Of a stretch of 64,000 nucleotides of DNA, positions 1-30,125 are shown in pieces. The stretch lies in the sequence record PZ452612.1. One strand, written 5' to 3'. This stretch comes from a phage. Made by a program: the position numbers and the translations under genes. A model generated the notes under the pieces. The model saw only the letters and a program-made list of their open reading frames with translations. It was not told the origin of the DNA and made no database searches. The first letter of the stretch is position 1, and every line of letters begins with the position of its first letter.

Positions 1-826
1 CTGTGCTACCTGTACGTCCTGAAACTTTGAATTGAGTGATACCAATATCATTATAAAGTTTCAAATCTTGAGGACGAACAAAACGAGTTCTCAACCAGTT
101 AAATGGGTCTGTATCACGAGCTTTAATACAGTGCTGCATAGGATATCCGTTTAAGGATTTAGCATCATCAGCTGTAACATCAGTACTATGGAAAATATAG
201 CAAGAGTCACGATAGCTACAATGTGTTGTATACCCTTTACCAGCATTAGAACAGAACTCATTTACAAGAACTTCAAATATTATATTGTTCTTATTGCAAA
301 ACTCTGCTGCACGCTTCAGGAAAGAAACTGAACGGTTCTTATGAATTCCACAGCAGACCTTTTTGATATTATACTGGTCATGCAAGTATTTGATTTGAGT
401 TACAGCATCGACATGTAGAATTGTTGAAACTTCAATCTCAATGTCTTTATTGACTTCACGAACAATTTCCATAACAACAGGGTTAGCGATAGTAATACGC
501 CATACGCCTATTGACCAAAGATACTGAACATAATCCTGAATAGCTTTCTTCTTCCACCCAACTAGTTCTCTTTTTGAACCAGGATTTATCGTGTTGAGTG
601 TATAGTTAAAGCAAATACCTAATTCGTTACAACGTTTAACGTAATCTTCTAACATCTTTTTGTCAACGTCAGGAAGCCTAAAATCAGGTCTGGCTGCTAC
701 AAAAGCCATTTCTCTTGTAGAGCCGTATACTTCGTTTATCAAGCTATTAGGATAAGTTTTATTGAGCTCTACGATTTTATCAAGAAGAGCTAAATCAAAA
801 TTCGTTCCAATTTTAAAAGTATTCAT
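1..826 (-). CDS. Peptidase-U32-family-like protein, N-terminal ~275 aa (3' end lies beyond window start)
   Basis: Minus-strand ATG at 826 with open frame to position 1 (MNTFKIGTNFDLALLDK...). Motifs resemble U32 family: YTLNTI, Cys-containing EVLVNEFCSNAGKGYTTHCSY, FKVSGRTGS. Called from memory only. Confidence 0.45.
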   Translation of the reverse strand, partial: MNTFKIGTNFDLALLDKIVELNKTYPNSLINEVYGSTREMAFVAARPDFRLPDVDKKMLEDYVKRCNELGICFNYTLNTINPGSKRELVGWKKKAIQDYVQYLWSIGVWRITIANPVVMEIVREVNKDIEIEVSTILHVDAVTQIKYLHDQYNIKKVCCGIHKNRSVSFLKRAAEFCNKNNIIFEVLVNEFCSNAGKGYTTHCSYRDSCYIFHSTDVTADDAKSLNGYPMQHCIKARDTDPFNWLRTRFVRPQDLKLYNDIGITQFKVSGRTGST

Positions 827-882
827 TTTTTTGCATCTCACGTTAATTGATGCGATGGTTTTTGCAGGTCTTACTTAAATTA

Positions 883-1269
883 TTATAGATTCGGTTTATA
901 TGATTTAAATGTTTCGAATTCGCCTTTATTCATAAGAGCTTTGAATTCGTCAGGACGCATAGCTTTGTCGTCGATAATCCAATCATATACTGGTTTATGT
1001 GTTAGCAAATTATGGTACTTCAAACCAATGTTTTCCAAGTTCTGAATCAGACTTGGGAGAATGTCAATTGCTATACGACCAGGACCTACTGACTTCATAC
1101 CGCGAGCAGTGTAAAGCGTTATGGTATGCCCTGCATCATACAGGGCATTAATAGCAGTCACCATTTCGACGTCTGGTTTGAAGTTCACGTAATCACGATT
1201 GTTATTCCACTCTGTTATACAATCATCGACATCAAAACAAAGATTAAGCATGTTTTCTACACGGTGCAT
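883..1269 (-). CDS. HAD-superfamily phosphatase (putative sugar-phosphate phosphatase)
   Basis: HAD motif I DxDxT (FDVDDCIT) near N-terminus; ATG at 1269 overlaps the stop of the upstream gene (TAATG). Track ORF 883..1284 trimmed to this ATG. Confidence 0.6.
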   Translation of the reverse strand: MHRVENMLNLCFDVDDCITEWNNNRDYVNFKPDVEMVTAINALYDAGHTITLYTARGMKSVGPGRIAIDILPSLIQNLENIGLKYHNLLTHKPVYDWIIDDKAMRPDEFKALMNKGEFETFKSYKPNL

Positions 1270-2954
1270 TAGATTCGTTCCCATTGATGAGTGATATCGC
1301 CACCGATTGGACGATAAGAAACACCAGTTTCTTTATCAGTTAGTACCCATTTACCAGGATTTTTTGTAATCAGAGTAGCCGTTACAGGTTCTGCTACGTC
1401 ATAACTAATAGAGCCGTCCTGAAGTACACGGCCCATGTTACGTAATTGCTTAGTCAGAAGTTCCATACCTTTATAATATGCGGCTACCGCTTTAAGTGGA
1501 TTATTCTTGAAATAACCACCTAATGCAATCCAGATAATTGCTACAGCCAAATGATGATACTCGTTAAACGAACTCATCTTTCCATATTTGTAAACTAATG
1601 GATTGATGTTAATAGTCACATTACAAGTTGTTTCGTCAATAGTAAACTGTCCCCAGGTCGGATTAGCGTTGAATTCATCATAACCTGAAACAGCATAAAG
1701 CACTTTAGCTTCATCATACAATTTTGGCCCGTAAATCTTGGTTTCGCCAAAATATCCACGAGGGTCGATAAACTTGACTTCGCCGTTATCAGTAATCATA
1801 GTATTACTGAAGTTCGGGTCACCGTGAATAACAGAGTACTGTCCCTGAGAACGGGTATGATAACGAATAAGATGTTCTAAAGCTTGCTTCAGCATTGGCT
1901 TCAGACGTCCAATCTTAGTGTAGTTCACGTGTGTGATTTTACCAAATGAATCAATCAATGGCTGAATGCTTTCACAACGATCAATAACTTTCGTATAGAA
2001 CTCTTTAGTGAAATCACGGCGAACAGTTTCAGGACTTACAAAATAAGTGTCTGTGCTGAATTTCAGTGCATCTAAAATTGCATCAACAATTTGTGGACGA
2101 GCAAGACTTGATTTGGATTTAATATATTCAAATGCTGGCTTACCTTTAATACGTTCCATTTCAAAATTATTTTCATTTACCGAAACTAACTGAGGAACTG
2201 AATCTGATTTCACTTTCAAATACCATGAAATCTCATCTTTTTGAAGAGCTCGACCTTGTTCGGTTAACGCGAATTTAGTTACAGTTTCTTCGCCAATTTC
2301 AACTGCATTAAAACTACGATTAAGTTCACGAACTTCATGAGCTTTTTCAAGTTTAGGCATATCACCTAAATCAATTAGATTCATAAGCTCTGATTTATTG
2401 AATGCACTGCCGTAAAGGAATTCTACGAAATCACGTCCTTTGCAGTATTCATGAATTTCCTCATCAGTAGAACCCATGTAGAATTCCCAGTCTTTGAACT
2501 GATAAATTCCTACAACATTACCGCCTGTTGAACCTACGTTAGTGATATTTTCACCATCGAAATTATATCGACATTCATCACCCTTAACATAGATTGCGTT
2601 AACATTCCAAGACCATGAACCAAAATCAGGAATAATATCACACCAGTTAACAATTACGTTATGGCCATCTAAATCTTTGTATAATTTAGCAAGAGCATAA
2701 GCAGAACCATACGCTTCATCAACTGTACGAATAGTCACATTGAACCCTTCTTGCTCGCAATAAGCTCGAACAGTTTCAGCAAATTTTGAATGAACTACTA
2801 CAATAATTTCATCTGCGCCAAGGTCAGAATAAATTGTATACAAATTGCTCAGAATAGTGTCTTGTTTATAGTTAACAAGAACTTTTGGAATATGATGCGT
2901 TATTGGATACAAACGAGTTGCCAGTCCAGCACCAAGAATAACAGCTTTTTTCAT
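1269..2954 (-). CDS. Bifunctional sugar-1-phosphate nucleotidylyltransferase (N-term) / APH-fold anomeric sugar kinase (C-term)
   Basis: 561-aa ORF. N-terminus MKKAVILGAGLATRLYPIT resembles RmlA-type G-x-G-T-R-L motif; C-terminus HGDPNFSNTMITDNGEVKFIDPRGYFG resembles APH/choline-kinase-like HGD..N...D motifs. SD GAGGA upstream. Confidence 0.7.
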   Translation of the reverse strand: MKKAVILGAGLATRLYPITHHIPKVLVNYKQDTILSNLYTIYSDLGADEIIVVVHSKFAETVRAYCEQEGFNVTIRTVDEAYGSAYALAKLYKDLDGHNVIVNWCDIIPDFGSWSWNVNAIYVKGDECRYNFDGENITNVGSTGGNVVGIYQFKDWEFYMGSTDEEIHEYCKGRDFVEFLYGSAFNKSELMNLIDLGDMPKLEKAHEVRELNRSFNAVEIGEETVTKFALTEQGRALQKDEISWYLKVKSDSVPQLVSVNENNFEMERIKGKPAFEYIKSKSSLARPQIVDAILDALKFSTDTYFVSPETVRRDFTKEFYTKVIDRCESIQPLIDSFGKITHVNYTKIGRLKPMLKQALEHLIRYHTRSQGQYSVIHGDPNFSNTMITDNGEVKFIDPRGYFGETKIYGPKLYDEAKVLYAVSGYDEFNANPTWGQFTIDETTCNVTININPLVYKYGKMSSFNEYHHLAVAIIWIALGGYFKNNPLKAVAAYYKGMELLTKQLRNMGRVLQDGSISYDVAEPVTATLITKNPGKWVLTDKETGVSYRPIGGDITHQWERI

Positions 2955-2995
2955 GTTGTGGTCCTCATTGGTAAGTAGGTGTATTGTACACTATT

Positions 2996-3139
2996 CTAGT
3001 TAAAGCATTCATACTTTGCTTGTAGTCCAATCATAATCCATCCAATTACAAGTGTTGGAATCATTACTGGAGCCGTTAAGCTCCAGTAGATAGTCATGAC
3101 AAGCATCAATAGTAAAAGTCCTATTGTTATTGCTTTCAT
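2996..3139 (-). CDS. Candidate small hydrophobic membrane peptide (47 aa), not in ORF track
   Basis: ATG at 3139 overlaps the isomerase stop (ATGA); translation MKAITIGLLLLMLVMTIYWSLTAPVMIPTLVIGWIMIGLQAKYECFN is strongly hydrophobic. Confidence 0.3.
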   Translation of the reverse strand: MKAITIGLLLLMLVMTIYWSLTAPVMIPTLVIGWIMIGLQAKYECFN

Positions 3140-3771
3140 TGTTCGCCTCGTAACATGGCACCTAGTGCACCGCCTGGATGGAACTTAAGAAAGTCATTAG
3201 AGGTAAATCCACGTTCAGACGAAAGGTTGATAGCAAACGTATCGATAAGCGCTAACAACAATGTAGTGGACATAGTCGGAGCCAGAGAATTCTCATCAAC
3301 CTCTACCGCGATGCCTGTACAGAAAGAGTAATCAAAAAGGGCTTCATTTTCTTGCGGAATGTCTGGGTTACAATGCAACAGAATCTGTTTGACATTTGGA
3401 CGAATCATTTTAAGATGCTTAGCCACGCCTATCATTTCTTCAGTCTTACCAGAACGACTAATATGAATCAACACATCATTAGGCGCAATGAATCCTGCAT
3501 CACCGTGAGAATAATGCCCAGTGTTCAAGTACATACTCGGGATACCGAGTGAAGCAAATGTCTCAGAAGCTTTAGTTGCAATATTAGCATTCTTACCAAC
3601 ACCTGTAATAATTACTCGGCTTTCATAATTACTAAGTCCAGGGCGTCGAAGAGTTTCTAGAATAGCATTATAACGAGCAGGGTTTTGACTAATTACTTTG
3701 GCCATAGCGGCCAAAGAAGAAGCTTGTTTTATGATTGCGTCAATAGCGATAGTAATAGGAGTAGTTTTCAT
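3136..3771 (-). CDS. SIS-domain sugar-phosphate isomerase, KdsD/GutQ-type (arabinose-5-phosphate isomerase-like, no CBS domains)
   Basis: 211 aa; motifs ITGVGKNANIATKASETFASLGIPS, HISRSGKTEE, LAPTMSTT and FHPGGALGAML resemble KdsD SIS domain; lacks the GNGGS pattern I associate with GmhA. Confidence 0.7.
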   Translation of the reverse strand: MKTTPITIAIDAIIKQASSLAAMAKVISQNPARYNAILETLRRPGLSNYESRVIITGVGKNANIATKASETFASLGIPSMYLNTGHYSHGDAGFIAPNDVLIHISRSGKTEEMIGVAKHLKMIRPNVKQILLHCNPDIPQENEALFDYSFCTGIAVEVDENSLAPTMSTTLLLALIDTFAINLSSERGFTSNDFLKFHPGGALGAMLRGEQ

Positions 3772-3811
3772 ATTTCTCTCATTTAATTAGTTTACCGTCC
3801 ATGACATTATA

Positions 3812-6523
3812 TCAAAAATCGAACATATCGAACAGAGATGCTTTCTTCTCGTAATCGAGTTTCGCTGCTGATGTGAATCCTTCAAGTGGTTTAATAAATG
3901 TCTTCTCAAGGAGAACAGTGTAGTCCATCCAATGAAGTACGTCATCTTTAATTAAATCTGTGATTTCAGTACCAGAAGGCCATGCGATACATTTATCACC
4001 GAACGGGTTTCCTTCACGTAAAGGCAGAACATATACTTTTTCACCTTCTACAACTTGTGGAGCATCAATATTACCTTTGATAGCTCTGTTATATGTCAGA
4101 ATTCCACGAATATGGAACGGACATTTAGGACCAGGGAATCCACCTACATCATATTTAGCAATGTTATTCGCAGAAGATACCGACGCGATGCTAATATAAT
4201 TCAATTGACGGAATTCTTTTTCAAACTCTTTAAAATATTCTTGTAATGATTCTTCACCTTCTTGAAGCATACGACGAATACATTCTTTAAGAGCTTTCTG
4301 TACTGCTTTAGGGGTCGAAGATTTCTGAGTCTCTAGACCCATGATTTTGAGTTTAGGCTCAGCGTAACGAGTACCTTCCATATCCCACACGTTTAATGCG
4401 TAACGTTTCTTACCAGTCCAGAATCCACCAATACCTTTAGAACCGAGCGGAGGACCAGCGATAGCTTCTCGGTCCATGAACATTAAGTGTTGTTTATTGT
4501 TCATGTATTCACACATTTCACGGAAACCTCTATCAATAGCAGGTTCCATACGTTCACGAGCGAACTTATCTAAGAAGTCTACCCAATGGTTGGTATCACG
4601 GAATTTAGATTCACCAACCTTATCGATAATTTTATCAGCAGATACGTAAATAGAGTCTGTATCACCATAAAGAACGAAAGCTTCACCTTCTGTACCACAA
4701 ACTTCGTTCAGATATTCATTAACTTTACGTTCAATCCACTGTAAAGCCATTTGACCAAATGTTGTGATTGCAGTAGCATTACGCAAATCGTAATAACGGA
4801 ACCAAACGTTGCCAAGTGCACCATAAAGTGAGTTGATAAGCAATTTACGGTTAATTTGTGCAGTCATACCTGCAACTTCAGTACGTTGAGCTCTAAACAA
4901 CATTTCATTAAGAGATTTAGCAGACAACTTTTTAATCTTTTCTTTAATCTCGTCAGTGAAGTCGAAACGATAATCAACATCTAATGGTTCGTCAACAGAA
5001 AGATTAGGATTATGCAACGCCTCTTTAATTATTTCACCATTACGTTGAGCCGCAAGCATATAACCTTTATGTTCTTTACGTTGATTAAAGACCTTAGTGA
5101 TTTCAGTTGGAACTACACCATCACGGTCTTTATAATACATCATGCCATTAGGAGAACAACTGTACACATCTGAAGGACGTTCAGCGATTGCGTTAATATA
5201 ATCATGCAGTGGAGCTACTTTAAACGTTCCTGCTATTGTTTCCGGGCTAATATTCACTTGGCGAATAATACTTGGATACAGAGATGTAAGGTCGAAACTC
5301 ATTACATATTTGTATCGATTTGGAATAGGTTCCTTAACAAAAGCGCCAGGATAAGGTTGAACCGGGTGAGAACGACCTTGTGGAATCACCTTGTTCTGCT
5401 CTTTAAGGCTATTAAAAATAATAGCATCCCATGTTTTAATTGGGCTAAACACAGATTGAATCTGTATCTTAGCATAATAACCCATGTCCAAACTCAAGTT
5501 GATGAACTGACGCTTAGCATCAATTTGCAATACACGATACACGTCGATAATGTTATAAGAAATATATCGTTGGTGATTGCTTTCACGAAGCTTAGAAATA
5601 GGGCCGTCATATTTCAGTTTACCAACGTTCAATTCAAATTCTGAAATGTAATCTAGAGAATACGACGGTTGATTGGTAAAAGAGAATTTTTTGTAAAGGT
5701 CGATATAATCAAGAACAGAGATACCGAACAATGTAATGATTTCACGAGAACCATACATGTTTTCGATAACTTTAACACGAGTTTTACGATGCGGTGATAA
5801 ACGTTTCGCAGTAGATTCGCCAAAAATATTCTTGATTCGGTTATACACATATGGAATATCAAATGACTCAACGTTCCATCCAGTCAAAATGACAGGAGTT
5901 TTCTGTTGCCAGAAGTTGAGATATTCCATCAACAATTCTTTTTCGTTATCGAACGGCATATAAATGATTTTATCGATAATTTCAGATGGAACTTCATCAC
6001 CGCCTTGTTCTTGAAGCTTAGCAGCGATTTCAATAGACCATTCTTCTACATTACCATATGGAGAATTCAATAGATCAAATACGTAGAACCTGTCGTCAAT
6101 TGAGTCATAATGGGTGATAGCATCAATCGGATGTTTTGCTTGTGATGGCTCAGGGAACCCATCCGGAGATGTTACTTCGATGTCGAAGTTAGCCACACGA
6201 ATTTTTGTATGGTCGTATTTGATTTCATAGTTATAAGTGTCAGACAAATACGCCAATTTGAAATCGTCCATGCCAAGTGCTTCAAGTCCGATATCTTCCA
6301 TGCGTTTAATCCATTGGGAGGCATCACGCATATTAGCGAACAACTTACGAGTACACGGCTTACCGTAGATATCGAAATATTTCGTAGCCTGACTTTCCGG
6401 ACAATGAGCAAACAGTGATGGTTTATATTCTACTTCACGAGTACGTTCACGGCCATTAGAATCGATGTAACGTTCAAAAATTGAATCACCAATCTGTTCA
6501 ACCGTTAAGTAAAATTCTTTCAT
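3812..6523 (-). CDS. 43: DNA polymerase gp43 (family B, with 3'-5' exonuclease)
   Basis: 903-aa ORF; motifs FDIEV (exo I), YGDTDS (pol motif C), KLLINSLYGALG; sequence matches my recollection of RB69 gp43. Confidence 0.97.
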   Translation of the reverse strand: MKEFYLTVEQIGDSIFERYIDSNGRERTREVEYKPSLFAHCPESQATKYFDIYGKPCTRKLFANMRDASQWIKRMEDIGLEALGMDDFKLAYLSDTYNYEIKYDHTKIRVANFDIEVTSPDGFPEPSQAKHPIDAITHYDSIDDRFYVFDLLNSPYGNVEEWSIEIAAKLQEQGGDEVPSEIIDKIIYMPFDNEKELLMEYLNFWQQKTPVILTGWNVESFDIPYVYNRIKNIFGESTAKRLSPHRKTRVKVIENMYGSREIITLFGISVLDYIDLYKKFSFTNQPSYSLDYISEFELNVGKLKYDGPISKLRESNHQRYISYNIIDVYRVLQIDAKRQFINLSLDMGYYAKIQIQSVFSPIKTWDAIIFNSLKEQNKVIPQGRSHPVQPYPGAFVKEPIPNRYKYVMSFDLTSLYPSIIRQVNISPETIAGTFKVAPLHDYINAIAERPSDVYSCSPNGMMYYKDRDGVVPTEITKVFNQRKEHKGYMLAAQRNGEIIKEALHNPNLSVDEPLDVDYRFDFTDEIKEKIKKLSAKSLNEMLFRAQRTEVAGMTAQINRKLLINSLYGALGNVWFRYYDLRNATAITTFGQMALQWIERKVNEYLNEVCGTEGEAFVLYGDTDSIYVSADKIIDKVGESKFRDTNHWVDFLDKFARERMEPAIDRGFREMCEYMNNKQHLMFMDREAIAGPPLGSKGIGGFWTGKKRYALNVWDMEGTRYAEPKLKIMGLETQKSSTPKAVQKALKECIRRMLQEGEESLQEYFKEFEKEFRQLNYISIASVSSANNIAKYDVGGFPGPKCPFHIRGILTYNRAIKGNIDAPQVVEGEKVYVLPLREGNPFGDKCIAWPSGTEITDLIKDDVLHWMDYTVLLEKTFIKPLEGFTSAAKLDYEKKASLFDMFDF

Positions 6524-7540: not shown

Positions 7541-8503
7541 TTATTTCCAAGTCAGTTCACAGGTCAGTTGAAGAAGCATATACATAACATGTAATTCAAT
7601 ATTACTTGCTAGTCCATGAAACTTATTATTTTCGCCTGCAATTTCGTAAAGCGAAATAATACTTTTACCAGGTGCAACTTGGTCATAACATTCTGAAACT
7701 AATTTATCTATGAACCATGAATAATCTGCAGCATATTTTGGAGCTAATGCACGAAGTTGTTTGATATCTTTGTTCTTCATTGCTTCGATAACATCAGAGA
7801 CTGTGCCACGGTCATTAGTTACGATAGACAGAATACCTGCATCAAGAACACCTTTAGACGAGTACTGGTCTAATTGGCCAATTGTACGACGAAAGTCTGG
7901 GAAGTTCTTTTTAACCAGAGCTGCAACAACTTTCATATCAGCGATTTCGATATTTTCGTTCTTACAGATTTCAACCATACGATGAATCATTTTCTTCATC
8001 ATCGAGATTTTATCTTCTTCAGTCGGACGACCGAATTCTATAACTCGACAACGGCTACGTAATGGTTCAATAATTCCATCAATGTTGTTGGCAGTAATAA
8101 TAATAGAACAGTTACTAGAGAATTCTTCCATAAACGTACGAAGGTGACGTTGTGATTCGGCGAGGCCACTACGGTCAAATTCATCAATAACAATAACTTT
8201 AGGCTTGCCTTCCATTGAGACTGAACGAGCGAATGCAGTTAACGGACCACGCACAAAATCAATCTTACAATCAGAACCGTTGACGAACATCATTTCGGCA
8301 TTGATATCATTACATAATGCTTTTGCTACGGTTGTTTTACCTGTACCAGGAGAAGGAGAGTGCAAAATAATATGAGGAAGTTTTCCTTTAGATACTAAAG
8401 ACTTGAATGTTTCATGGTCATACGCAGGCAGAATACATTCGTCAATGGAAGAAGGACGATATTTCTGTTCTAGAATGTGTTCTTTGGAATTGATAGTAAT
8501 CAT
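7541..8503 (-). CDS. 44: Clamp loader ATPase gp44 (AAA+)
   Basis: 320 aa; Walker [11 protein letters not shown], Walker [12 protein letters not shown] motif (LRSRC). Confidence 0.95.
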
Positions 8504-8578
8504 GTAATTTTCCTCATTATCATTAAACTGGAGGATTTCTCCTCCATAATCGTATCACATTAAACGTAAATCTTTGTC

Positions 8579-9265
8579 TTAGAAGTCGTGAGTAGAATCG
8601 GCTTCCATTGCAATAACATAACTTACTTGAGAGCTTTCAAACTTGGCTGCAACTTTATCACCAGCTCCCCACAACATTACTTTATAGTTACCTGGCTGGA
8701 TTTTCATATTAGCCATATTGATTACAAAGTTAAAGTTATTAGAACCATCATAATCGGTAAGAGTCAAAGAATACTTAGGACGAGTTAGTCCGGAATCTTC
8801 AACTTTATTGTAACCGTTGATAACAATTTTACCATCTTTATTTGTAATAGCAATTGTATCAATCTGGAGACCACGTGAAACTCGAAGCAATTGTTGAAGG
8901 TCTTCAGCTTTAATTTCAGTAATCACAGAAGCCACCGGGAATTGAATTGGCTTATTAGGAAAAACAATGGTGCTCTTGTCGGCAGCAGGCCAATAAACTG
9001 TGGAACGTGTATCTGCAATTTTAATATTGCCATCGGTGTGCATTGAAATTTCAGCATCATCAGACACTAGACTCAAAATGCTTAAGAAGCTATTCAAATC
9101 ATAAAGTGCTACGTCAAAATCAATTTCATCGGAGATATTTGCTTCTGCATAAGTGGTGCCATTAACTGCACGGGTCATAATAAATTTACCTTGACTCAGC
9201 AGAATGCCGGAGTTAATAGAGGCAAAGTTTTTCAGAATAGCGATAGTATCTTTAGACAGTTTCAT
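8579..9265 (-). CDS. 45: Sliding clamp gp45
   Basis: 228 aa from internal ATG (MKLSKDTIAILKNFASINSG...), ends ...EADSTHDF; T4 gp45-like. Confidence 0.95.
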   Translation of the reverse strand: MKLSKDTIAILKNFASINSGILLSQGKFIMTRAVNGTTYAEANISDEIDFDVALYDLNSFLSILSLVSDDAEISMHTDGNIKIADTRSTVYWPAADKSTIVFPNKPIQFPVASVITEIKAEDLQQLLRVSRGLQIDTIAITNKDGKIVINGYNKVEDSGLTRPKYSLTLTDYDGSNNFNFVINMANMKIQPGNYKVMLWGAGDKVAAKFESSQVSYVIAMEADSTHDF

Positions 9266-9307
9266 TTTATTTCCTTTCAAGACAATTCAAAGTTTATAAC
9301 AAATTTA

Positions 9308-9724
9308 TTATGCAGCAACCATCTGCTTTTTAATAGCTTCAGGCAGTGATTCAATATATTCTGGAATTTTAGAAGCAACAATTTCGCCAGCTGCAATTAA
9401 TTGTTCATCGGCATCAACACAGTAGAAATCTTCCAGACGCTCAGAACCATCTTTATCAAGAACGATTTTTCCACCTGCTTCAATAGAATCTTTATAGTGC
9501 TTACGCATCAGATGAATCCACATATCAGATACATCGTTATCAATAAAACCATAAATCATAAAACGAGTTTCTTGTGGCAAAGATTGAAGCTTTTTAGCAC
9601 TTGCGTCATCACAATGCAGGACCCATGCTTTACGAACACGATTATGGTTATGCGGGTTAGCGTCAGTACGGATAGAAGTAACTTTCAGATCAGCAGCAGT
9701 GAAACCTTTAGCAGTAGTAAACAT
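9308..9724 (-). CDS. rpbA: RNA polymerase-binding protein RpbA-like
   Basis: 138-aa ORF at the T4 rpbA position between 45 and 46; assignment by synteny and size. Confidence 0.55.
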   Translation of the reverse strand: MFTTAKGFTAADLKVTSIRTDANPHNHNRVRKAWVLHCDDASAKKLQSLPQETRFMIYGFIDNDVSDMWIHLMRKHYKDSIEAGGKIVLDKDGSERLEDFYCVDADEQLIAAGEIVASKIPEYIESLPEAIKKQMVAA

Positions 9725-9736
9725 ATTATTTCTCTC

Positions 9737-9937
9737 TTATTCGTAGAAGTCAGTAACTGTCCATGCGGAATTGCGATTAGACATTATTTTATTATACTCA
9801 TCTTTAAAAGCAGATTTGAGCATTTGTTCAGTAACAATATGTTCTTCACCTGAAAACGTATTGGTCAAAACATATTTTTTAATTTCAGGGACAACAAGAA
9901 GATGTTGTCCGGTTGAATACTCCATGTTGTTCTCCAT
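9737..9937 (-). CDS. Hypothetical small protein (45.2-like position)
   Basis: 66-aa ORF between rpbA and 46. Confidence 0.5.
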   Translation of the reverse strand: MENNMEYSTGQHLLVVPEIKKYVLTNTFSGEEHIVTEQMLKSAFKDEYNKIMSNRNSAWTVTDFYE

Positions 9938-9979
9938 TTAATTTGATGTGGTCATTATAACCACATCGTGTTAAAGCGT

Positions 9980-11668
9980 TTATGAAACAGTCATTACAGT
10001 AAATCGTCCAACTTTGCTCATTTGAAGATGTTGTCCATAACGTTGAGGGTCATGGTCTCTATGAGAAATAATGAACACGTTAGTATTTTGTAAACTTCCA
10101 AGAATGGTATCTATAGCCTTAACAGCCTCAGAATCTACAGCGCCGTCAAAAACTTCGTCAAGAATAAGAGTGTTGATTTTAACACCAGAGACCTTTTCAG
10201 CAATATCTCGCCATGTAAACAACAATGCGATATCGATACGTGCCTTTTCACCTTGACTAAATGAAGCATAACTAAAATCTTCACGACCACGTGATTTTAT
10301 AGATTCATTGAATTCTTCATCAATAGAAAACACGTAATCGGCTTCCATGATTTTAAGATAATGGTTAATCTGCTTGTTGAACAGAGGCACATATTTTTTA
10401 ATGATAGCACCTTTAATACCAGAATCTTTTAACATATCTGTGATAATACCACGATGGTATTTTTCAAGAACGATATCCGATTTTGTTTTAATGATTTTAT
10501 CAAGTTCTTTTTGAAGCAAAGCTATCTCATCGGCATGGTCGATAAATTCCGCCGAGGCTTGTTCTATTGCAGCTTTAACTTTCTTAGCTTTATCAATAGT
10601 GGCAATCATTGCTTGTTTCTTGGTACGAATATCAGATGCAAGGTCCTGCTTAGTCTTAACATTAGCTCTATATTCGTCCACTAGGACACTCAGATTATCT
10701 CTGTGGCAGGTAAGTTGCTCGAATGAGTGATTACATTCATGAAGCTTATCGGTAATCTTAGAGACAATAGGGTCACCCTGGTGCAACTGTGATGCGCAAG
10801 TAGGACATGTACCGCCATCATGATACATCTTAATAACTTTGTTATATGAGTCAATTTTAGATTTAATCAAGAATGCTTCTTGTCCTATCTTGTTGAATGC
10901 CTCAGTAGGGTCTTCGTCAAGAACGATATTAAGTAGACGCTCGTTAGCTTCTTCGATTTCTGCTTTTAATGACCGAGCTTCTTTGGCTAGGTCGTCGTAC
11001 ATATTCTGTAGACGCGCTACATTATCACCAGATAATTTCTTTTGACGTTCGATGTTCTCATTATAAATCTTAATTTGTTGGATAATACCATCTTTCTTGG
11101 CATCGAGAACTTGTCCCTGGGAATTAAGTTCTCGAACTTGAGACTTATTGATTTTATCCATTTCAGCGAGTGTGCCAACTTCTAATAAGTCTTCAACAAG
11201 CTTTCTGCGAGCAGGGGTGCTAAGAGCCATGAAAGGGGTATACCCTGCCGTCCCAAGCACAACGATTTGTTTAAAAGACGCGTATGACATTCCGATGCTA
11301 CGTTCAAATTCTTCTTGGAAGTCACGACTGCTGGCAGATTCATCAAGACGAACACCGTCAACGGAGATTTCGAAAATATTGGGCTTTTGGCCACGTTTAA
11401 TGAAGTATTTTTTACCATCGAATTCCATCCAAAGCTCAACTAAGAGCTCTTTCTTGTTCGTGCTATTAATGATTTGTCCTTTCTTAACATCACGAAATGG
11501 TTTACCGAAAAGTCCGAAAGTGATGGCTTCTAACATCGTAGATTTACCACCGCCGTTTTTACCAGTGATTAATGTCTTTTGGACTTTATCTAATTGGATA
11601 TCAATAGGATTCCCACCTACCGACATGATGTTTTGATAACGAACACGATTTAATTTAAATGATTTCAT
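9980..11668 (-). CDS. 46: Recombination endonuclease subunit gp46 (Rad50/SbcC-like ATPase)
   Basis: 562 aa; Walker A GKNGGGKST, central coiled coil, CPTC zinc hook-like motif, C-terminal ILDEVFDGAVD. Confidence 0.95.
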   Translation of the reverse strand: MKSFKLNRVRYQNIMSVGGNPIDIQLDKVQKTLITGKNGGGKSTMLEAITFGLFGKPFRDVKKGQIINSTNKKELLVELWMEFDGKKYFIKRGQKPNIFEISVDGVRLDESASSRDFQEEFERSIGMSYASFKQIVVLGTAGYTPFMALSTPARRKLVEDLLEVGTLAEMDKINKSQVRELNSQGQVLDAKKDGIIQQIKIYNENIERQKKLSGDNVARLQNMYDDLAKEARSLKAEIEEANERLLNIVLDEDPTEAFNKIGQEAFLIKSKIDSYNKVIKMYHDGGTCPTCASQLHQGDPIVSKITDKLHECNHSFEQLTCHRDNLSVLVDEYRANVKTKQDLASDIRTKKQAMIATIDKAKKVKAAIEQASAEFIDHADEIALLQKELDKIIKTKSDIVLEKYHRGIITDMLKDSGIKGAIIKKYVPLFNKQINHYLKIMEADYVFSIDEEFNESIKSRGREDFSYASFSQGEKARIDIALLFTWRDIAEKVSGVKINTLILDEVFDGAVDSEAVKAIDTILGSLQNTNVFIISHRDHDPQRYGQHLQMSKVGRFTVMTVS

Positions 11669-11913
11669 ATGTATTCTCTTCGAATGAAGTCCTCTACATA
11701 TTTTAACATGTCATCTCTATCAGCAAAATACTCATCTAGTTCTGCATACATAACAACACCCGGTGCGTACTCACAGGTAACATACATTGTTCCAAAGAAA
11801 CGAGGAGTTGTCTCCTCATAATTCTCAGTCCATTCAACGATACCAATATAACCGTCACCAATACTAAATTCGTGACGATGGATTTCATAGTCAGTCTTCG
11901 TCATTATACGCAT
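11665..11913 (-). CDS. Hypothetical protein (46.1-like position)
   Basis: 82-aa ORF overlapping the gp46 start; synteny. Confidence 0.55.
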   Translation of the reverse strand: MRIMTKTDYEIHRHEFSIGDGYIGIVEWTENYEETTPRFFGTMYVTCEYAPGVVMYAELDEYFADRDDMLKYVEDFIRREYI

Positions 11914-12148
11914 CCTCGATACATGCTTCAGCCATTTTAAGAATAGAGCCAGGAGTATCGTTGTCCATTATATTAAAGCTAAATTCAATAGCCCAGTCGG
12001 TACAGACATGAACGGCTTTAACTTCATTGCCTTCAACGCGTAATGGCTCAATCCAATACTTGATAGTGTTCTCGAATCCATCATCATCTTTAACGTCTAT
12101 TTCAACTTCAAGCCCAAGCCCGGCATTGTTAAATTCATCTAAAGTCAT
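11891..12148 (-). CDS. Hypothetical acidic protein (46.2-like position)
   Basis: 85-aa ORF between 46.1-like and 47. Confidence 0.55.
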   Translation of the reverse strand: MTLDEFNNAGLGLEVEIDVKDDDGFENTIKYWIEPLRVEGNEVKAVHVCTDWAIEFSFNIMDNDTPGSILKMAEACIEDAYNDED

Positions 12149-13164
12149 TGTGTTGCCTCAATATAAAGTTCGTTAGAATATTTGACCAGCGCTTCTCTGT
12201 CTTCGTCTGAGATATCTGGAATCGCGTCAATATATTCTTTAATGATATCTTGAAGTGATTTAATCTCGATTTCCTGGTCGTCATCAGATTCAACACTGTT
12301 ATCAACTTTAGAAACCATACGAAGAGAGTGAACTACTTTTTCAAGTTCAGATTCAAACTTAGTCAACTCTGAATCAATTTCTGATACTATAACACGTACG
12401 GCTAGATTAGTATAATCAGAATAATTGATTTTGCCTTTAAACGGATAAGTGATTCTTCGATGCCATGTTGTTTCATTAGGAATAAATTCCATACGTTCAA
12501 CATCAGTGTCAAATACCCAGAATCCACGCGGGTCGTTCTCATCACCTGCAGTAAGGGTCCACGGTGTTCCAATATATTTGACGTTAGCAGCTTCAGAGAT
12601 TGTGTGGAAGTGGCCTGACCAGACTTGTTTATAAGTCTTTAAGAAATCAGGTTCAAGCCCATGAGACTTCATCCCTTTATAGAAATAAAAGCCGTTCAGT
12701 TCCCAGTGCCCAACACAATACGCAGCAGAAGAAGTCTTGATGTGCTCTAAGATTTCACCTGTATTTTCTTCACACATCCATGGAACGATATCAATCAGAC
12801 ATCCGTCAAAATCTACAGTAGTCGGATGCTCATAAATAGTAAAGTTTTCAAATTGAGTTAACAATTCAGAAACAGTGTTAGGTGTTATTGTATTCTTAAA
12901 CGCCATGTCATGGTTTCCTATCGTGACATGAACGTGAATGCCTGCTTTAGAAATCATATCAACGATTTCACGATTGAATTCCATTGTACGATGTGTTATT
13001 GCTTTACGGACGTCAAACCAATCACCGTACTGAATCCAAGTTTTAATCCCGTGTTTCTTAGAGTATTCAATTGCTTGTCGAATACCATCACGTTGAATAT
13101 CTTGAACCCATGGGTCGTCTTGTTTGACTCCGATATGGAAGTCGCCTAAGTGCAAAATTTTCAT
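12145..13164 (-). CDS. 47: Recombination endonuclease subunit gp47 (Mre11/SbcD-like phosphoesterase)
   Basis: 339 aa; calcineurin-like motifs HLGDFH, GDWFD, GNHD, GHWE. Confidence 0.95.
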   Translation of the reverse strand: MKILHLGDFHIGVKQDDPWVQDIQRDGIRQAIEYSKKHGIKTWIQYGDWFDVRKAITHRTMEFNREIVDMISKAGIHVHVTIGNHDMAFKNTITPNTVSELLTQFENFTIYEHPTTVDFDGCLIDIVPWMCEENTGEILEHIKTSSAAYCVGHWELNGFYFYKGMKSHGLEPDFLKTYKQVWSGHFHTISEAANVKYIGTPWTLTAGDENDPRGFWVFDTDVERMEFIPNETTWHRRITYPFKGKINYSDYTNLAVRVIVSEIDSELTKFESELEKVVHSLRMVSKVDNSVESDDDQEIEIKSLQDIIKEYIDAIPDISDEDREALVKYSNELYIEATQ

Positions 13165-13208
13165 ATTATTTCCTCATTAGTTAATTCATTTTATCATCCG
13201 TTTATAAA

Positions 13209-13235
13209 GCAAAAAAGGAACTCCGAAGAGTTCCT
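13209..13235 (-). terminator. Rho-independent terminator (minus strand), UUCG tetraloop plus U6
   Basis: Stem AGGAACTC/GAGTTCCT around cgaa; minus strand reads hairpin followed by TTTTTTGC; lies between a small ORF and gene 47. Confidence 0.6.
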
Positions 13236-13407
13236 ATCCACATAGTACACCGTACAGAGGCTCATTTGAACTTTTAAATCGAATTGGCTTGTACGTAATA
13301 GTTCCTTCGGCTTTAGCTTTATCATAAGACTCTTTAAAACGTCTCATTCTTTCTGCTTTGCCTTTACGGATTTTATCGAAATTTTCAGAAGTCGGGATGT
13401 TCGTCAT
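13234..13407 (-). CDS. Candidate small basic protein (57 aa), not in ORF track
   Basis: ATG at 13407 preceded by GAGAGGTG SD-like; MTNIPTSENFDKIRKGKAERMRRFKESYDKAKAEGTITYKPIRFKSSNEPLYGVLCG; stop inside terminator stem. Occupies the T4 alpha-gt region. Confidence 0.35.
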   Translation of the reverse strand: MTNIPTSENFDKIRKGKAERMRRFKESYDKAKAEGTITYKPIRFKSSNEPLYGVLCG

Positions 13408-13446
13408 GCATAAGCACCTCTCAGAAAATGCCTAAATCAATTTCTC

Positions 13447-13653
13447 TCATCGTTTCCACCATTTCTTAACTTGAAATGAATCGGCCCACACGAGTTGTTT
13501 TGGGTCTGCCTTTACAATAGGCGGACAAATTTCTGTAATAGAACCGTCGTGATATTCCTTTTCAGAAATTTTAACACAAAGAGGACCTCCCAATTTAAGG
13601 GTGAACCCTGCGTTCAGCTTCAGACGTTTAAACTTTGTTTGAACTAGCGCCAT
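13447..13653 (-). CDS. Hypothetical small protein
   Basis: Track ORF 13447..13668 trimmed to second ATG; start uncertain. Confidence 0.4.
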   Translation of the reverse strand: MALVQTKFKRLKLNAGFTLKLGGPLCVKISEKEYHDGSITEICPPIVKADPKQLVWADSFQVKKWWKR

Positions 13654-13951
13654 TAATGATGTCCTCAATAGCCTGACGAGTAGTAACCCACTGGATTTTA
13701 ATTAACTTGTCATTGTATGGTTGTCGTAGAATATCCCGAGATTTCTTAATAGCATATTCGTAAGCTTCGAAGTTGTTTTGAATTGCTGCTTCTTGAGCAT
13801 GAGCATAAAGACGGTTTAGTTCAAAACGATTCTTTTTAAGAATCTTTTCGGATTTTTTACGTGCTTCAGCTTCATTTTTCTTTTGGATTTCTTGTAGCAT
13901 TTTAGCTACTGCATCTTCTGCTTCTTTATTTTCAATAATCTCGGTAGTCAT
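13628..13951 (-). CDS. Hypothetical protein (107 aa, Lys/Glu-rich)
   Basis: ORF track; located between 47 and 55 where T4 has alpha-gt. Confidence 0.5.
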   Translation of the reverse strand: MTTEIIENKEAEDAVAKMLQEIQKKNEAEARKKSEKILKKNRFELNRLYAHAQEAAIQNNFEAYEYAIKKSRDILRQPYNDKLIKIQWVTTRQAIEDIINGASSNKV

Positions 13952-13952
13952 A

Positions 13953-14168
13953 TTATCTCATTAAATTAAAATAAAAACGTCCATCCTCTTCAATACAGAA
14001 CTCATACTCAACTGGAGTCCCATTTATCGAAAATGACACGTCATGTGGGTTCAAAGGGTCGATGTCAAAATTAATTTTAAATTCACGACCCAACAGTTTT
14101 ACCAAATAAGGGATTGCTTCGTCAAAAGGTTCTTCTAAGTAGTTAGAGATGTCAATTGTCATCCTCAT
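13953..14168 (-). CDS. Hypothetical small protein downstream of gene 55
   Basis: Track ORF 13953..14246 overlapped gp55 by ~95 nt; trimmed to internal ATG just after the gp55 stop. Confidence 0.4.
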
Positions 14169-14709
14169 ATAAAAAATCCAAACTAGGCGAATCGCTAACA
14201 ACTTCCTTCTTTTCAGCCCCAGGAGCTTTATAAGCGGATTCTTCATAATGCGTCATTTTATCGTAGATGTCTTGAATAAACGTTTCATCTACTAACGCTA
14301 CCATATCATCGTCATGACTGTCGTAGACATTATGAACGAAGTAACTATATTTCTTTGCAACTTCCTTACGTTCTTTTTTGATACGTTGGACAAAAGCATT
14401 AAAACAAGCTCGAGTTATGTATGCATGTGGGTTATTGTACTTAGTTTCGTCGAAATTATGAAGTCCCTTAATAGAGGCTTCAATCCCATCTGCAATCATC
14501 TCCTGCTTCCAAGACTGGGTATATCCTGAAAAGTTGAAACGTTTGGACAGGCCTTCGGCGATAAGCATAATTGCTAAACCGATGGTATCATTCTGACGAA
14601 TAATTTTGTTTGGGTCTTTATTATTTAAGAGCTCCTTTTTCCACTCGATTATAGCGGCGAGAAGCTCTTTATTATTCACATAGTTATTTTTAGGTTTTTG
14701 TTCAGTCAT
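14152..14709 (-). CDS. 55: Late-transcription sigma factor gp55
   Basis: 185 aa from internal ATG ([35 protein letters not shown]...); T4 gp55-like. Confidence 0.95.
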
Positions 14710-26775: not shown

Positions 26776-26833
26776 GTTTTACCTCCAGTAGTTGATAGGT
26801 CTATAATAACATAACCATAGACCTTGTAAACAA

Positions 26834-27121
26834 CTAAAAGAAACTTTTTTCGGTATTTTTTCCACTGAACCAAACAGACTTCGGGATTTTTTGTAATTTT
26901 TCAGATTTAAGTTTCTCTTCCTGTTCTTTCTTATATACACCCTTGTCGTACTGGAGCATCTCTATGACATTCTTTTGCAAACGATCTAAGGTAATTAAGG
27001 CTTTAGTTTTTCCTTTCAAGGAAGAGTCCTGGCGAACCTCCTCGCTATATTGCATTGTAGAACTAACCATACGATGAGCATAGAGTTCGACTGCGGCTTT
27101 AATTTTTTGCATAAAATCCAT
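26834..27121 (-). CDS. Hypothetical protein
   Basis: 95-aa ORF. Confidence 0.45.
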   Translation of the reverse strand: MDFMQKIKAAVELYAHRMVSSTMQYSEEVRQDSSLKGKTKALITLDRLQKNVIEMLQYDKGVYKKEQEEKLKSEKLQKIPKSVWFSGKNTEKSFF

Positions 27122-27259
27122 AACATATCCTCTTTGATTTGTACATCATTATTTTTAAATATTTCTATGCCCTCAGTAGGTTCCTGGTGTCCTTCTTTGA
27201 GGTAAGCCATATGATTATTCATCTTTATGGCTTTTGTTACCTCAGAACTTCCTATAAGC

Positions 27260-28261
27260 TTATTTCAGTAAAGTAACTTCCGAGATTTCTTCCCAACCAT
27301 CTTTATCAGTTGAAATAAAATCTGCTACATAAAGAGCCGTACGTAATGATACATTGCGAAGACGAGATACGTTAGCCTTCATCCAGGACAATGCTTTATA
27401 CGTTTCTGCATCCGTCAGACCACGTTTCTGCATCATGTCAGTAGATAATATTACATCTTCAACTCGAACCATAATCTCTTCATTAGAGTGTACTCCAAGG
27501 TCGAGATACACTGAACGAGATACTAAAGCTTGAAGGTGTGGAGCAAGTTTCGAACCCCGTTCTAACTCTTTATCGATATCAACGTTTGTAATGAAAACGA
27601 TAGTACCTTCAAACTCAAATTCTTTATCAATACCCTTATCCTCGAGATAAGATGACGCAGTGCTCCAACAAACTTTGCGTTTATCTCCGGTATCTAATGC
27701 TGCTTTAAGAAGGTTCAGGATGTCCATATCTGAGAATACGTCAACGTCATCGATTAAGAGAACGCTGTCTTCATCACGGTTGAGCCAAAGTTGTTCGTAA
27801 AGGCCAATACCAGAGATTTTACCATTAATGCTTTTGTATTTGATGAAACCATTATCATTAGCATTATTAAGTGCTTTATCCAGAGAATACGTCTTACCAA
27901 TACCAGCTGCACCTGAAATAATGAGTGAACGAATTTTGCCATCGATAATGCCATTCGTCATCATGTTCATTACTTTAAAGCGTTTGTTGATACGGGTTTT
28001 CATATCTTCAGTGCTTTCAACAACTGCAACTGGTGATGTCTCAACTCCTTCCATTACGATGTCTGATTTGAAGACCCATACTCCACGTTCAGAACCATCA
28101 ATCATAACGAAAATTTTACCATCACCTAAGTGGGAACATTCAGGATTAAGCTTTGCCGGGAACCAGGTCTTTGTGGCAACATAAGAACCAGAGATTTCGT
28201 TATTACGATAGATACCTTTTTTGATTTGAACGTTGAACATTTTATTCTCCAATTTACTCAT
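27260..28261 (-). CDS. P-loop NTPase (Walker A/B) of unknown function
   Basis: 333 aa; Walker A GAAGIGKTYS, Walker B VLLIDDVD. Confidence 0.6.
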   Translation of the reverse strand: MSKLENKMFNVQIKKGIYRNNEISGSYVATKTWFPAKLNPECSHLGDGKIFVMIDGSERGVWVFKSDIVMEGVETSPVAVVESTEDMKTRINKRFKVMNMMTNGIIDGKIRSLIISGAAGIGKTYSLDKALNNANDNGFIKYKSINGKISGIGLYEQLWLNRDEDSVLLIDDVDVFSDMDILNLLKAALDTGDKRKVCWSTASSYLEDKGIDKEFEFEGTIVFITNVDIDKELERGSKLAPHLQALVSRSVYLDLGVHSNEEIMVRVEDVILSTDMMQKRGLTDAETYKALSWMKANVSRLRNVSLRTALYVADFISTDKDGWEEISEVTLLK

Positions 28262-28337
28262 TTCGTTTCGATAGGTCTATAGTATCATATCCTAAAAGCA
28301 TGTACACTACTTTTTAAAAATATTTTAACCCCCTAAA

Positions 28338-28353
28338 GGGACCCGAAGGTCCC
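28338..28353 (-). terminator. UUCG-tetraloop hairpin downstream of the secreted-protein gene (minus strand)
   Basis: GGGACC-cgaa-GGTCCC perfect 6-bp stem; U-containing tail on minus strand. Confidence 0.45.
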
Positions 28354-28358
28354 CACAT

Positions 28359-28625
28359 TTACTTATCACACTTAGCAACATAATTAGGCATATCACAGAA
28401 TACAGAGCGAGTAACTACTCGACCCTTTGACCATGCTTCAGTTGCTTGTCCGGCCGTGCTATTAATATAGCTTGATTTAATGTTCTCAATACCCTGAGAA
28501 TGTGATGCATTTACCGAACCGTTAGAAGGCCCAGAAGACTGGTTACCACCAGCTCCTGCGCCCGTGGTAGCACCAACAGAGAATGCCATCATTACTGCGA
28601 ATAAACCAATTACTAATTTTTTCAT
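28359..28625 (-). CDS. Small secreted protein (signal peptide, Gly/Ser/Asn-rich, C-terminal Cys pair)
   Basis: 88 aa; MKKLVIGLFAVMMAFSVGA signal-like N-terminus; late promoter TATAAATA immediately upstream. Confidence 0.55.
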   Translation of the reverse strand: MKKLVIGLFAVMMAFSVGATTGAGAGGNQSSGPSNGSVNASHSQGIENIKSSYINSTAGQATEAWSKGRVVTRSVFCDMPNYVAKCDK

Positions 28626-28656
28626 ATTTACCTCAAGTTAATGGTTATTTATCTAT

Positions 28657-29646: not shown

Positions 29647-30116
29647 TTAGCCTTATATTCAAGAGTAGGACAGACTTTTTCTTTACGAGCTTTAAGGTAT
29701 TCGCCTATTAATGATTTCTTACGTTCAATAGGCTCAAGTCCATTTTTAATTCGTTCTTGGTTTTGCGCAATGAGCTCAATTTCTTTATAATATTTTCTGT
29801 CGTTATATTTGTCTAACAACCAAGACGGACCAATTACCAACCCGGTAGCAATAAAAGCCATGACTGCTACAATTAAAATGCCTACACCAATTGAGGCTGG
29901 AACTAATGTCCATAGACTGCTAAAAACAAAGAATTTAGTTAAAATTTCCTGGCCAATGATTGTGACTGCTGCTAAAATCGCAAATCCAATAATTGAAACA
30001 GCCAATACCGGGATTAACGTTTTCCAAAAATAAGCACACAACGTTTTCGGACGATTCCATGTACTATTGAACGCGGCATAAATTTTAAAGTGCCAAGAGT
30101 TTTCATTGATAATCAT
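29643..30116 (-). CDS. Integral membrane protein
   Basis: 157 aa with two long hydrophobic segments. Confidence 0.5.
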   Translation of the reverse strand: MIINENSWHFKIYAAFNSTWNRPKTLCAYFWKTLIPVLAVSIIGFAILAAVTIIGQEILTKFFVFSSLWTLVPASIGVGILIVAVMAFIATGLVIGPSWLLDKYNDRKYYKEIELIAQNQERIKNGLEPIERKKSLIGEYLKARKEKVCPTLEYKAK

Positions 30117-30125
30117 AATAATTCC

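Follow-up and report, generated by a model that had tools for sequence, protein, structure and literature searches.

A U32-family protein in the arabinosyl-5-hydroxycytosine cluster of RB69-like phages is a candidate O2-independent cytosine hydroxylase

The DNA of phage RB69 contains arabinose, which was found by Thomas 2018 and reported as arabinosyl-5-hydroxymethylcytosine (ara-hmC), together with the proposal that the products of ORF055c and ORF53_52c make uridine diphosphate (UDP)-arabinose; the latter is a single protein of 561 amino acids (aa) that emerged when the frameshift between ORF052c and ORF053c was corrected (Thomas 2018). Mass spectrometry (MS) and nuclear magnetic resonance (NMR) have since identified the base as mono- or di-arabinosylated 5-hydroxycytosine, with the ether directly at C5 (Lee 2026), and an independent study from 2026 calls the earlier hmC assignment erroneous. 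The acceptor is provided by gp48, a ThyA homologue that makes 5-hydroxy-deoxycytidine monophosphate (5-hydroxy-dCMP) in a reaction that depends on flavin mononucleotide (FMN) and O2 and incorporates 18O from 18O2, and tri-arabinosylation uses UDP-arabinofuranose (UDP-Araf) (Lee 2026). For phage HY126, the work of He 2026, as recounted in Lee 2026, describes an isomerase that yields arabinose-5-phosphate (Ara5P), a kinase domain of AfhE that converts it to arabinose-1,5-bisphosphate, the HAD enzyme AfhF that takes off the 5-phosphate, and an N-terminal AfhE domain that produces UDP-Araf. Here we analyze the left end (positions 1-3811) of a 64,000-nucleotide (nt) stretch of phage DNA (record PZ452612.1; hereafter the window). 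We are confident that this region is the sugar-activation half of the arabinosyl-5-hydroxycytosine (arabinosyl-5hoC) DNA hypermodification cluster of Mosigvirus (RB69-like) phages, and we cautiously favor a role as cytosine hydroxylase for the U32-family protein encoded next to the sugar genes.

Characterized U32 proteins carry out hydroxylations of this kind on other substrates. RlhA forms 5-hydroxycytidine at C2501 of 23S rRNA (ho5C2501), TrhP forms 5-hydroxyuridine (ho5U34) in tRNA, and UbiU/UbiV hydroxylates a ubiquinone precursor; all of them work independently of O2, need prephenate and Fe-S clusters, and have an O2-dependent counterpart. The corresponding RB69 protein, gp50, carries the label 'sugar or heterocycle reductase' in Lee 2026, which mentions two RNA pyrimidine-hydroxylation pathways without noting that both rest on U32 proteins. 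No open paper linking U32 to phage 5-hydroxycytosine (5hoC) was found in our literature search, with He 2026 and Mahler 2025 lying outside its reach. A preliminary description of this DNA, made from its sequence alone, had listed the U32 protein and given it no role. We propose, as the somewhat better bet, that it is a prephenate-dependent, O2-independent, RlhA-like Fe-S cytosine C5 hydroxylase, not a peptidase, that would act as the anaerobic partner of gp48 in enterobacterial T4-like phages. Such a pairing with an O2-dependent flavoenzyme would parallel those of UbiU/V with UbiI/H/F and of TrhP with TrhO.

The full-length phage protein (386 aa) matches Pfam Peptidase_U32 (E=7.3e-11; 42.2 bits, cutoff 22.4), and hhalign places RlhA nearest among the E. 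coli paralogues (E=1.4e-5), followed by TrhP (3e-3) and UbiU (8e-3). In a MAFFT alignment, E161, C169, C176, C580 and C611 of RlhA, all of which are required for ho5C2501, correspond to E185, C203, C209, C340 and C349 of the phage protein, whereas H165 and Q175, which are dispensable in RlhA, are not conserved. C169 and C176, the counterparts of C203 and C209, are the cysteine pair of the U32 motif that RlhA has in common with UbiU. Ten cysteines are invariant across 54 members of the phage family, including C203, C209, C340 and C349, and the protein is predicted to bind Fe-S clusters and to use prephenate. The window itself encodes residues 1-275, with C340, C349 and the C-terminal cysteine cluster falling outside it. 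Like RlhA, TrhP and UbiU/V, the phage protein has the U32 TIM-barrel domain, and it conserves the residues essential in RlhA. It differs in being about 360-390 aa long across the family (RlhA has 653 aa) and in carrying six further invariant cysteines, and its identity to the E. coli paralogues is 17-21%. Pfam assigned the U32 domain only, and DUF3656, the domain of the RlhA subfamily, was not found. Because of this missing domain and the low identity we regard the phage proteins as a separate subfamily and not as RlhA orthologues, and we lean toward the view that they found a subfamily of pyrimidine C5 hydroxylases, carried by phages, dependent on prephenate and independent of O2, that would act on DNA precursors or on DNA.

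Structural comparison is compatible with the family assignment and bears on how the protein is annotated. The AlphaFold (AF2) model of an 87%-identical orthologue (predicted local distance difference test score, 92) was compared with the PDB by Foldseek, and its top and only specific match was the U32 protein MK0906 (5d88), followed by generic TIM barrels; a sequence search against the PDB gave no match. MK0906 is called a U32 'peptidase', and GenBank, RefSeq and PHROGs annotate the phage protein in the same sense, as a collagenase-type enzyme. We find a genuine peptidase hardly credible, given that the family was named after a few reports of collagenolytic activity for which no mechanism is known, that ten cysteines are invariant and the essential residues of RlhA are kept, and that proteolysis leaves unexplained the linkage to chorismate mutase (CM) and nucleotide genes described below.

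Uncultured phages show this linkage. A protein search returned a large set of homologues of about 360 aa that are 45-58% identical to the phage protein, and scanning IMG/VR for U32 yielded 49 loci, 15 of them T4-like and 34 non-T4-like. The latter, together with three metagenome loci (37 in all), were analyzed by clustering of open reading frames (ORFs), profile searches and Pfam annotation. In one arrangement a glycosyltransferase (GT), a SIS-domain isomerase and an AfhE-type fusion enzyme, sometimes joined by a fusion of 3-deoxy-D-arabino-heptulosonate-7-phosphate (DAHP) synthase with CM (DAHPS-CM), and an ORF of 200 aa precede U32; a second consists of MazG, a Tmk-like kinase, a GT, U32 and the DNA polymerase III (Pol III) alpha subunit, and a third of Tmk, Pol III alpha, dCMP deaminase and U32. 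The GT is homologous to the base-proximal transferase RB69 gp46:47 (profile E down to 1e-27), and matches to the fusion enzyme reach 1e-69. U32 therefore travels with a dCTPase, a dedicated deoxynucleoside monophosphate (dNMP) kinase and a DNA glycosyltransferase, with or without the arabinose-activation genes, which is the set for replacing dCMP by hydroxylated dCMP and then glycosylating it.

The second line of linkage concerns the oxygen donor. In seven unrelated viral loci (L038:6411-7433, L039, L040, L041, L047, L029 and L058) the DAHPS-CM fusion, whose Pfam domains score 3.9e-25 and 5.4e-20, adjoins U32. Phage-borne entry and branch enzymes of the shikimate pathway are unusual. In 56 T4-like phages (Entb_45 and 55 others) an AroQ chorismate mutase lies between U32 and the ThyA-like gene; the Entb_45 protein matches Pfam CM_2 above threshold (2.4e-10), and the group includes LC53, 92A1 and Thanatos, known carriers of arabinosyl-5hoC. 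An enzyme that forms prephenate, the co-substrate of the characterized U32 hydroxylases, has thus been recruited next to U32 twice independently. Because U32 is linked both to the hydroxy-dCMP and glycosylation set and to prephenate-forming enzymes, a base hydroxylase is the simplest reading of its function. The hydroxylation would then most likely take place on a nucleotide.

These loci also allow other functions to be weighed. The protein might act on a sugar or another heterocycle, as a reductase or in an epimerase-like tailoring of the arabinose donor, or it might be the electron-transfer partner of the ThyA-like hydroxylase. Such roles would agree with the annotation of RB69p050 in Lee 2026, with the position of the gene, which has the sugar genes on one side and the base genes on the other, and with its invariable co-occurrence with the ThyA-like gene in T4-like phages. 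Against them stand 12 non-T4-like loci that pair U32 with Tmk, MazG or dCMP deaminase and have no SIS or fusion gene within 8 kb, six of which also encode the GT homologue. Moreover, in 36 of the 37 loci outside the T4-like group the 8 kb around U32 contain no ThyA-family gene: a profile of the 5-hydroxy-dCMP (5hodCMP) synthase matched one ORF in these neighborhoods, and that ORF is a canonical thymidylate synthase. A scan with patterns restricted to close relatives found no 5hodCMP synthase on the non-T4-like contigs either. In IMG/VR the synthase profile picked out 25 contigs, every one of T4-like size, of which 15 bear U32 and 10 do not. Since the adjacent CM points to prephenate chemistry and the catalytic residues of RlhA are kept, we consider both roles unlikely. 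A third possibility is that the protein hydroxylates RNA, as RlhA and TrhP do, and tunes translation during infection, its position in the cluster being incidental. All characterized U32 enzymes of nucleic acids act on RNA, RlhA is the nearest paralogue, and T4-like phages encode tRNAs. Against this stand the lack of DUF3656 and of most of the 653-aa body of RlhA, and a linkage to GT, Tmk-like, MazG, dCMP deaminase and sugar-activation genes that is kept across unrelated phage lineages, which make an RNA substrate quite improbable. Phages and metagenomes are so far the only sources of the phage subfamily, and its genes always lie among those for DNA precursors and DNA glycosylation.

Two further features of the uncultured loci were noted. 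An ORF family of about 200 aa ('c3'; for example L052:14567-15169) lies immediately upstream of U32 in 16 loci among L035-L059; it has no Pfam match and no counterpart in the T4-like loci, and its product might be a partner of U32 or a replacement phosphatase. On one scaffold (L008; ENA ERZ28598223 scaffold_150, 8001-14360) two U32 paralogues flank genes for NT5C, a nicotinamide mononucleotide transporter, a deoxynucleoside kinase, a radical-SAM protein and a nucleoside deoxyribosyltransferase-like protein. This contig looks bacterial, with a dockerin GH43 gene and a Glu-Cys ligase gene, and may represent a cellular or prophage nucleoside-modification island.

Among cultured phages, tblastn detected the U32 protein in 222 genomes, all at 80% identity or more, and the host genera named for these phages all belong to the Enterobacterales or are Shewanella. 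Both groups are facultative anaerobes. The fusion enzyme is present in 377 genomes, 57 of which are Acinetobacter phages, and across genera in which it is 43-72% identical U32 is 81-89% identical. U32 and CM are both missing from Acinetobacter phages that otherwise have the cluster; in one of these, DLP3, the HAD and ThyA-like genes are immediate neighbors, and U32 is not in the place that it has in the phage studied here. On the proposed reading, U32 would hydroxylate cytosine C5 with prephenate as oxygen donor, and would give an O2-independent route to the same acceptor base when the host grows without O2. In many uncultured phages of low GC content, cytosine glycosylation would depend on it as the sole hydroxylase, and some phages appear to add a CM or a DAHP-synthase/CM fusion that would supply the stoichiometric oxygen donor. 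By rough estimate, the RB69 genome has about 63,000 cytosines and the burst is about 100 or more; each infected cell would therefore need millions of prephenate molecules, and with such a demand it would be understandable that phages encode CM and DAHP synthase.

Several observations weigh against the proposed hydroxylase. In vitro hydroxylation has yet to be demonstrated for any U32 protein, gp48 and the dNMP kinase suffice for 5hoC in aerobic E. coli, and gp50 has been assigned to the reductases, as noted above (Lee 2026). In T4-like phages U32 does not occur apart from the ThyA-like gene, and all 16 U32-bearing loci examined there have the 5hodCMP synthase next door. The E. coli Dhakavirus JS10 has the cluster without U32 or CM, and with such coliphages the split between aerobic and anaerobic hosts is not clean. 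The absence of ThyA-like genes from non-T4-like loci covers 8 kb on either side of U32, or the reach of patterns for close relatives. Mosigviruses, including the phage studied here, have no CM and instead have a 79-aa ORF in that slot. Finally, the substrate might be dCMP, dCTP, DNA or RNA. The 79-aa ORF (RB69 ORF049c) was considered as a diverged CM and rejected: it gave no Pfam, NCBIfam or PDB signal and shows no similarity to the CM of Entb_45, and phages of Yersinia and Pectobacterium carry it alongside a true CM.

If the hydroxylase assignment is correct, it would explain how gut phages achieve full hypermodification of their DNA, with the attendant resistance to restriction and CRISPR, without O2 for the flavin hydroxylase. 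It would also be the first U32 enzyme tied to DNA rather than to RNA or quinones, and might give a small soluble model with a simple substrate (such as dCMP) for a family whose hydroxylase activity has never been reconstituted in vitro. In the databases, the 'peptidase' annotation of more than 200 sequenced phages would be reassigned, and a set of uncultured phages would stand out as probable carriers of DNA with glycosylated hydroxy-pyrimidines.

The sugar half of the cluster stands on firmer ground. The stretch at the left end of the window is 100% identical to the E. coli O157 typing phages 3, 6 and 13 (genus Mosigvirus) and has 98.5% DNA identity to positions 26827-30638 of RB69, in agreement with the RB69 affinity noticed in the preliminary description; more than 150 sequenced phages carry it at 95% identity or above. 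Set against the arabinosyl-5hoC cluster of RB69, HY126 and DLP3 (RB69 gp45-gp55), it has the same genes in the same order, and nothing material differs. The arabinose pathway as such is in the literature (Thomas 2018; Mahler 2025; He 2026; Lee 2026), and the sugar module alone re-finds what appeared between 2018 and 2026 and adds nothing by itself.

By near-identity to characterized enzymes the steps are known, and in the window's phage they would run as follows. The SIS isomerase would divert ribulose-5-phosphate (Ru5P) to D-arabinose-5-phosphate, the C-terminal kinase domain of the fusion would convert this to arabinofuranose-1,5-bisphosphate (Ara-1,5-P2), the HAD phosphatase would take off the 5-phosphate, and the N-terminal nucleotidyltransferase domain of the fusion would form UDP-arabinofuranose. 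Glycosyltransferases encoded outside the window (RB69 gp46:47, with gp3 elsewhere) would then add one or two arabinoses to 5-hydroxycytosine in DNA, the acceptor 5-hydroxy-dCMP coming from the FMN- and O2-dependent ThyA homologue gp48.

The preliminary description had correctly recognized a module that makes nucleotide-activated arabinose for DNA modification, and had drawn a different route, in which the HAD enzyme would release free arabinose from Ara5P, an anomeric kinase would form arabinose-1-phosphate (Ara1P), and the nucleoside diphosphate (NDP)-arabinose made from it would modify hmC. The same domains fit this route, the step labels in Table 1 of Lee 2026, which keeps the older free-arabinose scheme, follow it, and Thomas 2018 reported ara-hmC. 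According to the text of Lee 2026, however, AfhE of HY126 phosphorylates Ara5P to the 1,5-bisphosphate and AfhF then dephosphorylates it to Ara1P ahead of the uridylyltransferase step, and the NMR and MS data show a direct C5-O ether to 5-hydroxycytosine, so that neither the free sugar nor the hmC acceptor is retained and the route as a whole appears very improbable. It should be kept in mind that the AfhE and AfhF biochemistry is taken from the account that Lee 2026 gives of He 2026. The same sources overtake two reservations made from the sequence, namely that the pathway was biochemically unverified, since the HY126 enzymes have been characterized (He 2026, in that account) and PDB 9IQW is about 98% identical to the HAD protein, and that sugar and carrier could not be known, since these are now established as D-arabinofuranose on UDP (Lee 2026).

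Pfam and NCBIfam searches bore out the domain assignments made earlier (SIS, NTP_transferase, kinase, HAD and U32). The isomerase matches Pfam SIS (E=1e-10) and phrog_5670, and its best NCBIfam models are those of Ara5P isomerases (APIs), KpsF/GutQ (2e-32), KdsD (7e-31) and GutQ (9e-23), which places it with KdsD/GutQ; the alignments span model positions 2-153 of 268 and 47-202 of 328, with scores under the curated cutoffs. A GmhA-type heptose isomerase had been named as the finding that would overturn the arabinose assignment, and GmhA was not among the NCBIfam matches at E<=0.01. The tandem CBS pair found at the C terminus of full-length KdsD and GutQ is not present in the 211-aa protein, which resembles the single-domain API 3etn (2.6e-25; further PDB matches are 2xhz, 3.5e-19, and 5uqi). 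The isomerase was not found by tblastn in four Klebsiella- or Proteus-type T4-like loci (L014, L015, L018 and L024) and in JS10 (L003), which keep the fusion, HAD, ThyA-like and GT genes and presumably rely on host KdsD or GutQ for Ara5P; in the same five loci the Tmk-like gene is relocated between the HAD gene and U32 or the ThyA-like gene.

The fusion enzyme has the architecture of AfhE, an N-terminal sugar-1-phosphate nucleotidyltransferase followed by a domain of the APH/choline-kinase fold. Pfam NTP_transferase matches residues 3-99 (E=1.3e-9), weak kinase matches (Fructosamin_kin, Seadorna_VP7) cover residues 354-409, and PDB 1jyk is matched with E=2.4e-5. Choline activation of the LicC/LicA type had been named as the other finding that would count against the arabinose assignment; the likeness of the fusion to LicC and choline kinase is at the level of the fold. 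Homology to AfhE of HY126 suggests that the C-terminal domain converts Ara5P to Ara-1,5-P2 and that the N-terminal RmlA/MurU-like domain joins Ara1P and UTP into UDP-Araf. The gene is an intact single ORF here, and is split in the RB69 GenBank record by a sequencing error. The HAD protein matches NCBIfam TIGR01689 (E=2e-13) and differs from PDB 9IQW at 3 of 129 aligned residues (E=1e-86), the construct starting at the residue that opens the 128-aa form, and the adjacent ThyA-like enzyme matches PDB 9IQC, 9IR2 and 9IQU (E=8e-161). With these two matches, the phage whose enzymes were characterized is essentially the phage of the window. We take 9IQW and 9IQC to be HY126 structures, and because the neighboring HAD and ThyA-like proteins are near-identical to them, the fusion is likely to be close to AfhE of HY126 as well. 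RefSeq and PHROGs misname the HAD protein 'phosphoheptose isomerase' and the fusion 'bifunctional protein GlmU', names that are repeated in more than 100 phage records.

Table 1. Features at the left end of the window and next to it.
Feature	Position	Strand	Remarks
gp43 DNA polymerase	3812-6523	minus	903-aa ORF, polB in NC_041863; context, marks the upstream boundary of the module
SIS arabinose-5-phosphate isomerase, single-domain (predicted Ru5P to Ara5P)	3136-3771	minus	211 aa; = RB69 ORF055c/gp55
Peptide with two hydrophobic segments	2996-3139	minus	47 aa; = RB69 ORF054c
Bifunctional AfhE-type nucleotidyltransferase/kinase fusion	1269-2954	minus	561 aa; = RB69 ORF53_52c
AfhF-type HAD phosphatase (predicted Ara-1,5-P2 to Ara-1-P)	883-1269 or 883-1284	minus	128 or 133 aa; = RB69 ORF051c
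U32-family protein	2-826	minus	residues 1-275 of 386; gene exits the left edge; = RB69 ORF050c/gp50
Promoter-like site, TTTAAA-16 nt-TATAAT	882-909	minus	3' end of the HAD gene, ahead of U32; weak
79-aa ORF	L001:8430-8669, just left of the window		phrog_8601; = RB69 ORF049c; between U32 and the ThyA-like gene

The general logic of the cluster is shared with the glucosyl-hmC system of T4 (gp42, alpha-gt, beta-gt and host UDP-glucose), which occupies the same neighborhood from gp43 to uvsX. In both, an enzyme of the ThyA family produces a dCMP with a hydroxyl group, which enters the DNA through a dNMP kinase and the polymerase and is there glycosylated by GT-B transferases; unlike in T4, the hydroxyl sits directly on C5, FMN and O2 take the place of folate, and the sugar is arabinofuranose. 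Enterobacteria have no NDP-arabinose, and the phage therefore makes its own donor. A further parallel is ADP-heptose synthesis (GmhA, HldE, GmhB), in which a SIS isomerase, a kinase that forms a bisphosphate, a HAD phosphatase and a nucleotidyltransferase act in turn, with kinase and transferase fused. The pathway logic is identical to that of the module, and the enzyme families are different, the module having an isomerase of the KdsD/GutQ type, a kinase of the APH/choline-kinase fold and a transferase like RmlA, MurU and LicC. The match of the HAD enzyme in the AlphaFold database is a heptose-1,7-bisphosphate phosphatase (Lee 2026).

As described earlier from the sequence, the genes are co-directional, all five ORFs of the region lying on the minus strand directly 3' of the gp43 gene. 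In NC_041863 the full cluster reads gp43, SIS, the 47-aa ORF, fusion, HAD, U32 (386 aa), the 79-aa ORF, the ThyA-like gene, a 299-aa protein (GT), the Tmk-like gene and UvsX, of which the window covers the sugar half. No glycosyltransferase is encoded within 1-3771; the nearest lies about 1.3 kb past the left edge of the window, as had been suspected when the transferase was placed elsewhere, and the ThyA homologue (gp48) about 1 kb past it. Translational coupling, which had been assumed for the module, holds for the two overlapping junctions, SIS/peptide (ATGA) and fusion/HAD (TAATG), and not for the remaining three, which are gaps of 40, 41 and 56 nt. The 47-aa peptide, whose start overlaps the SIS stop codon and whose two segments were seen in the hydropathy profile, matches phrog_3610 (E=7e-27), is 47-66% identical in 11 of the 15 T4-like loci and is conserved in JS10 too, always between the isomerase and fusion genes.

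A scan of the region for promoters and terminators gave counts no higher than expected from shuffled sequence (13 sites against 15.3), and we make no regulatory claim from it; the site ahead of U32 in Table 1 was the best-scoring promoter-like one, with 10 of 12 matches. Separately, a TATAAT hexamer directly after the gp43 stop codon (3795-3812, minus strand), about 30 nt ahead of the SIS start, may be an internal promoter of the module, and the SIS start itself is preceded by a GAGAG element resembling a Shine-Dalgarno sequence.

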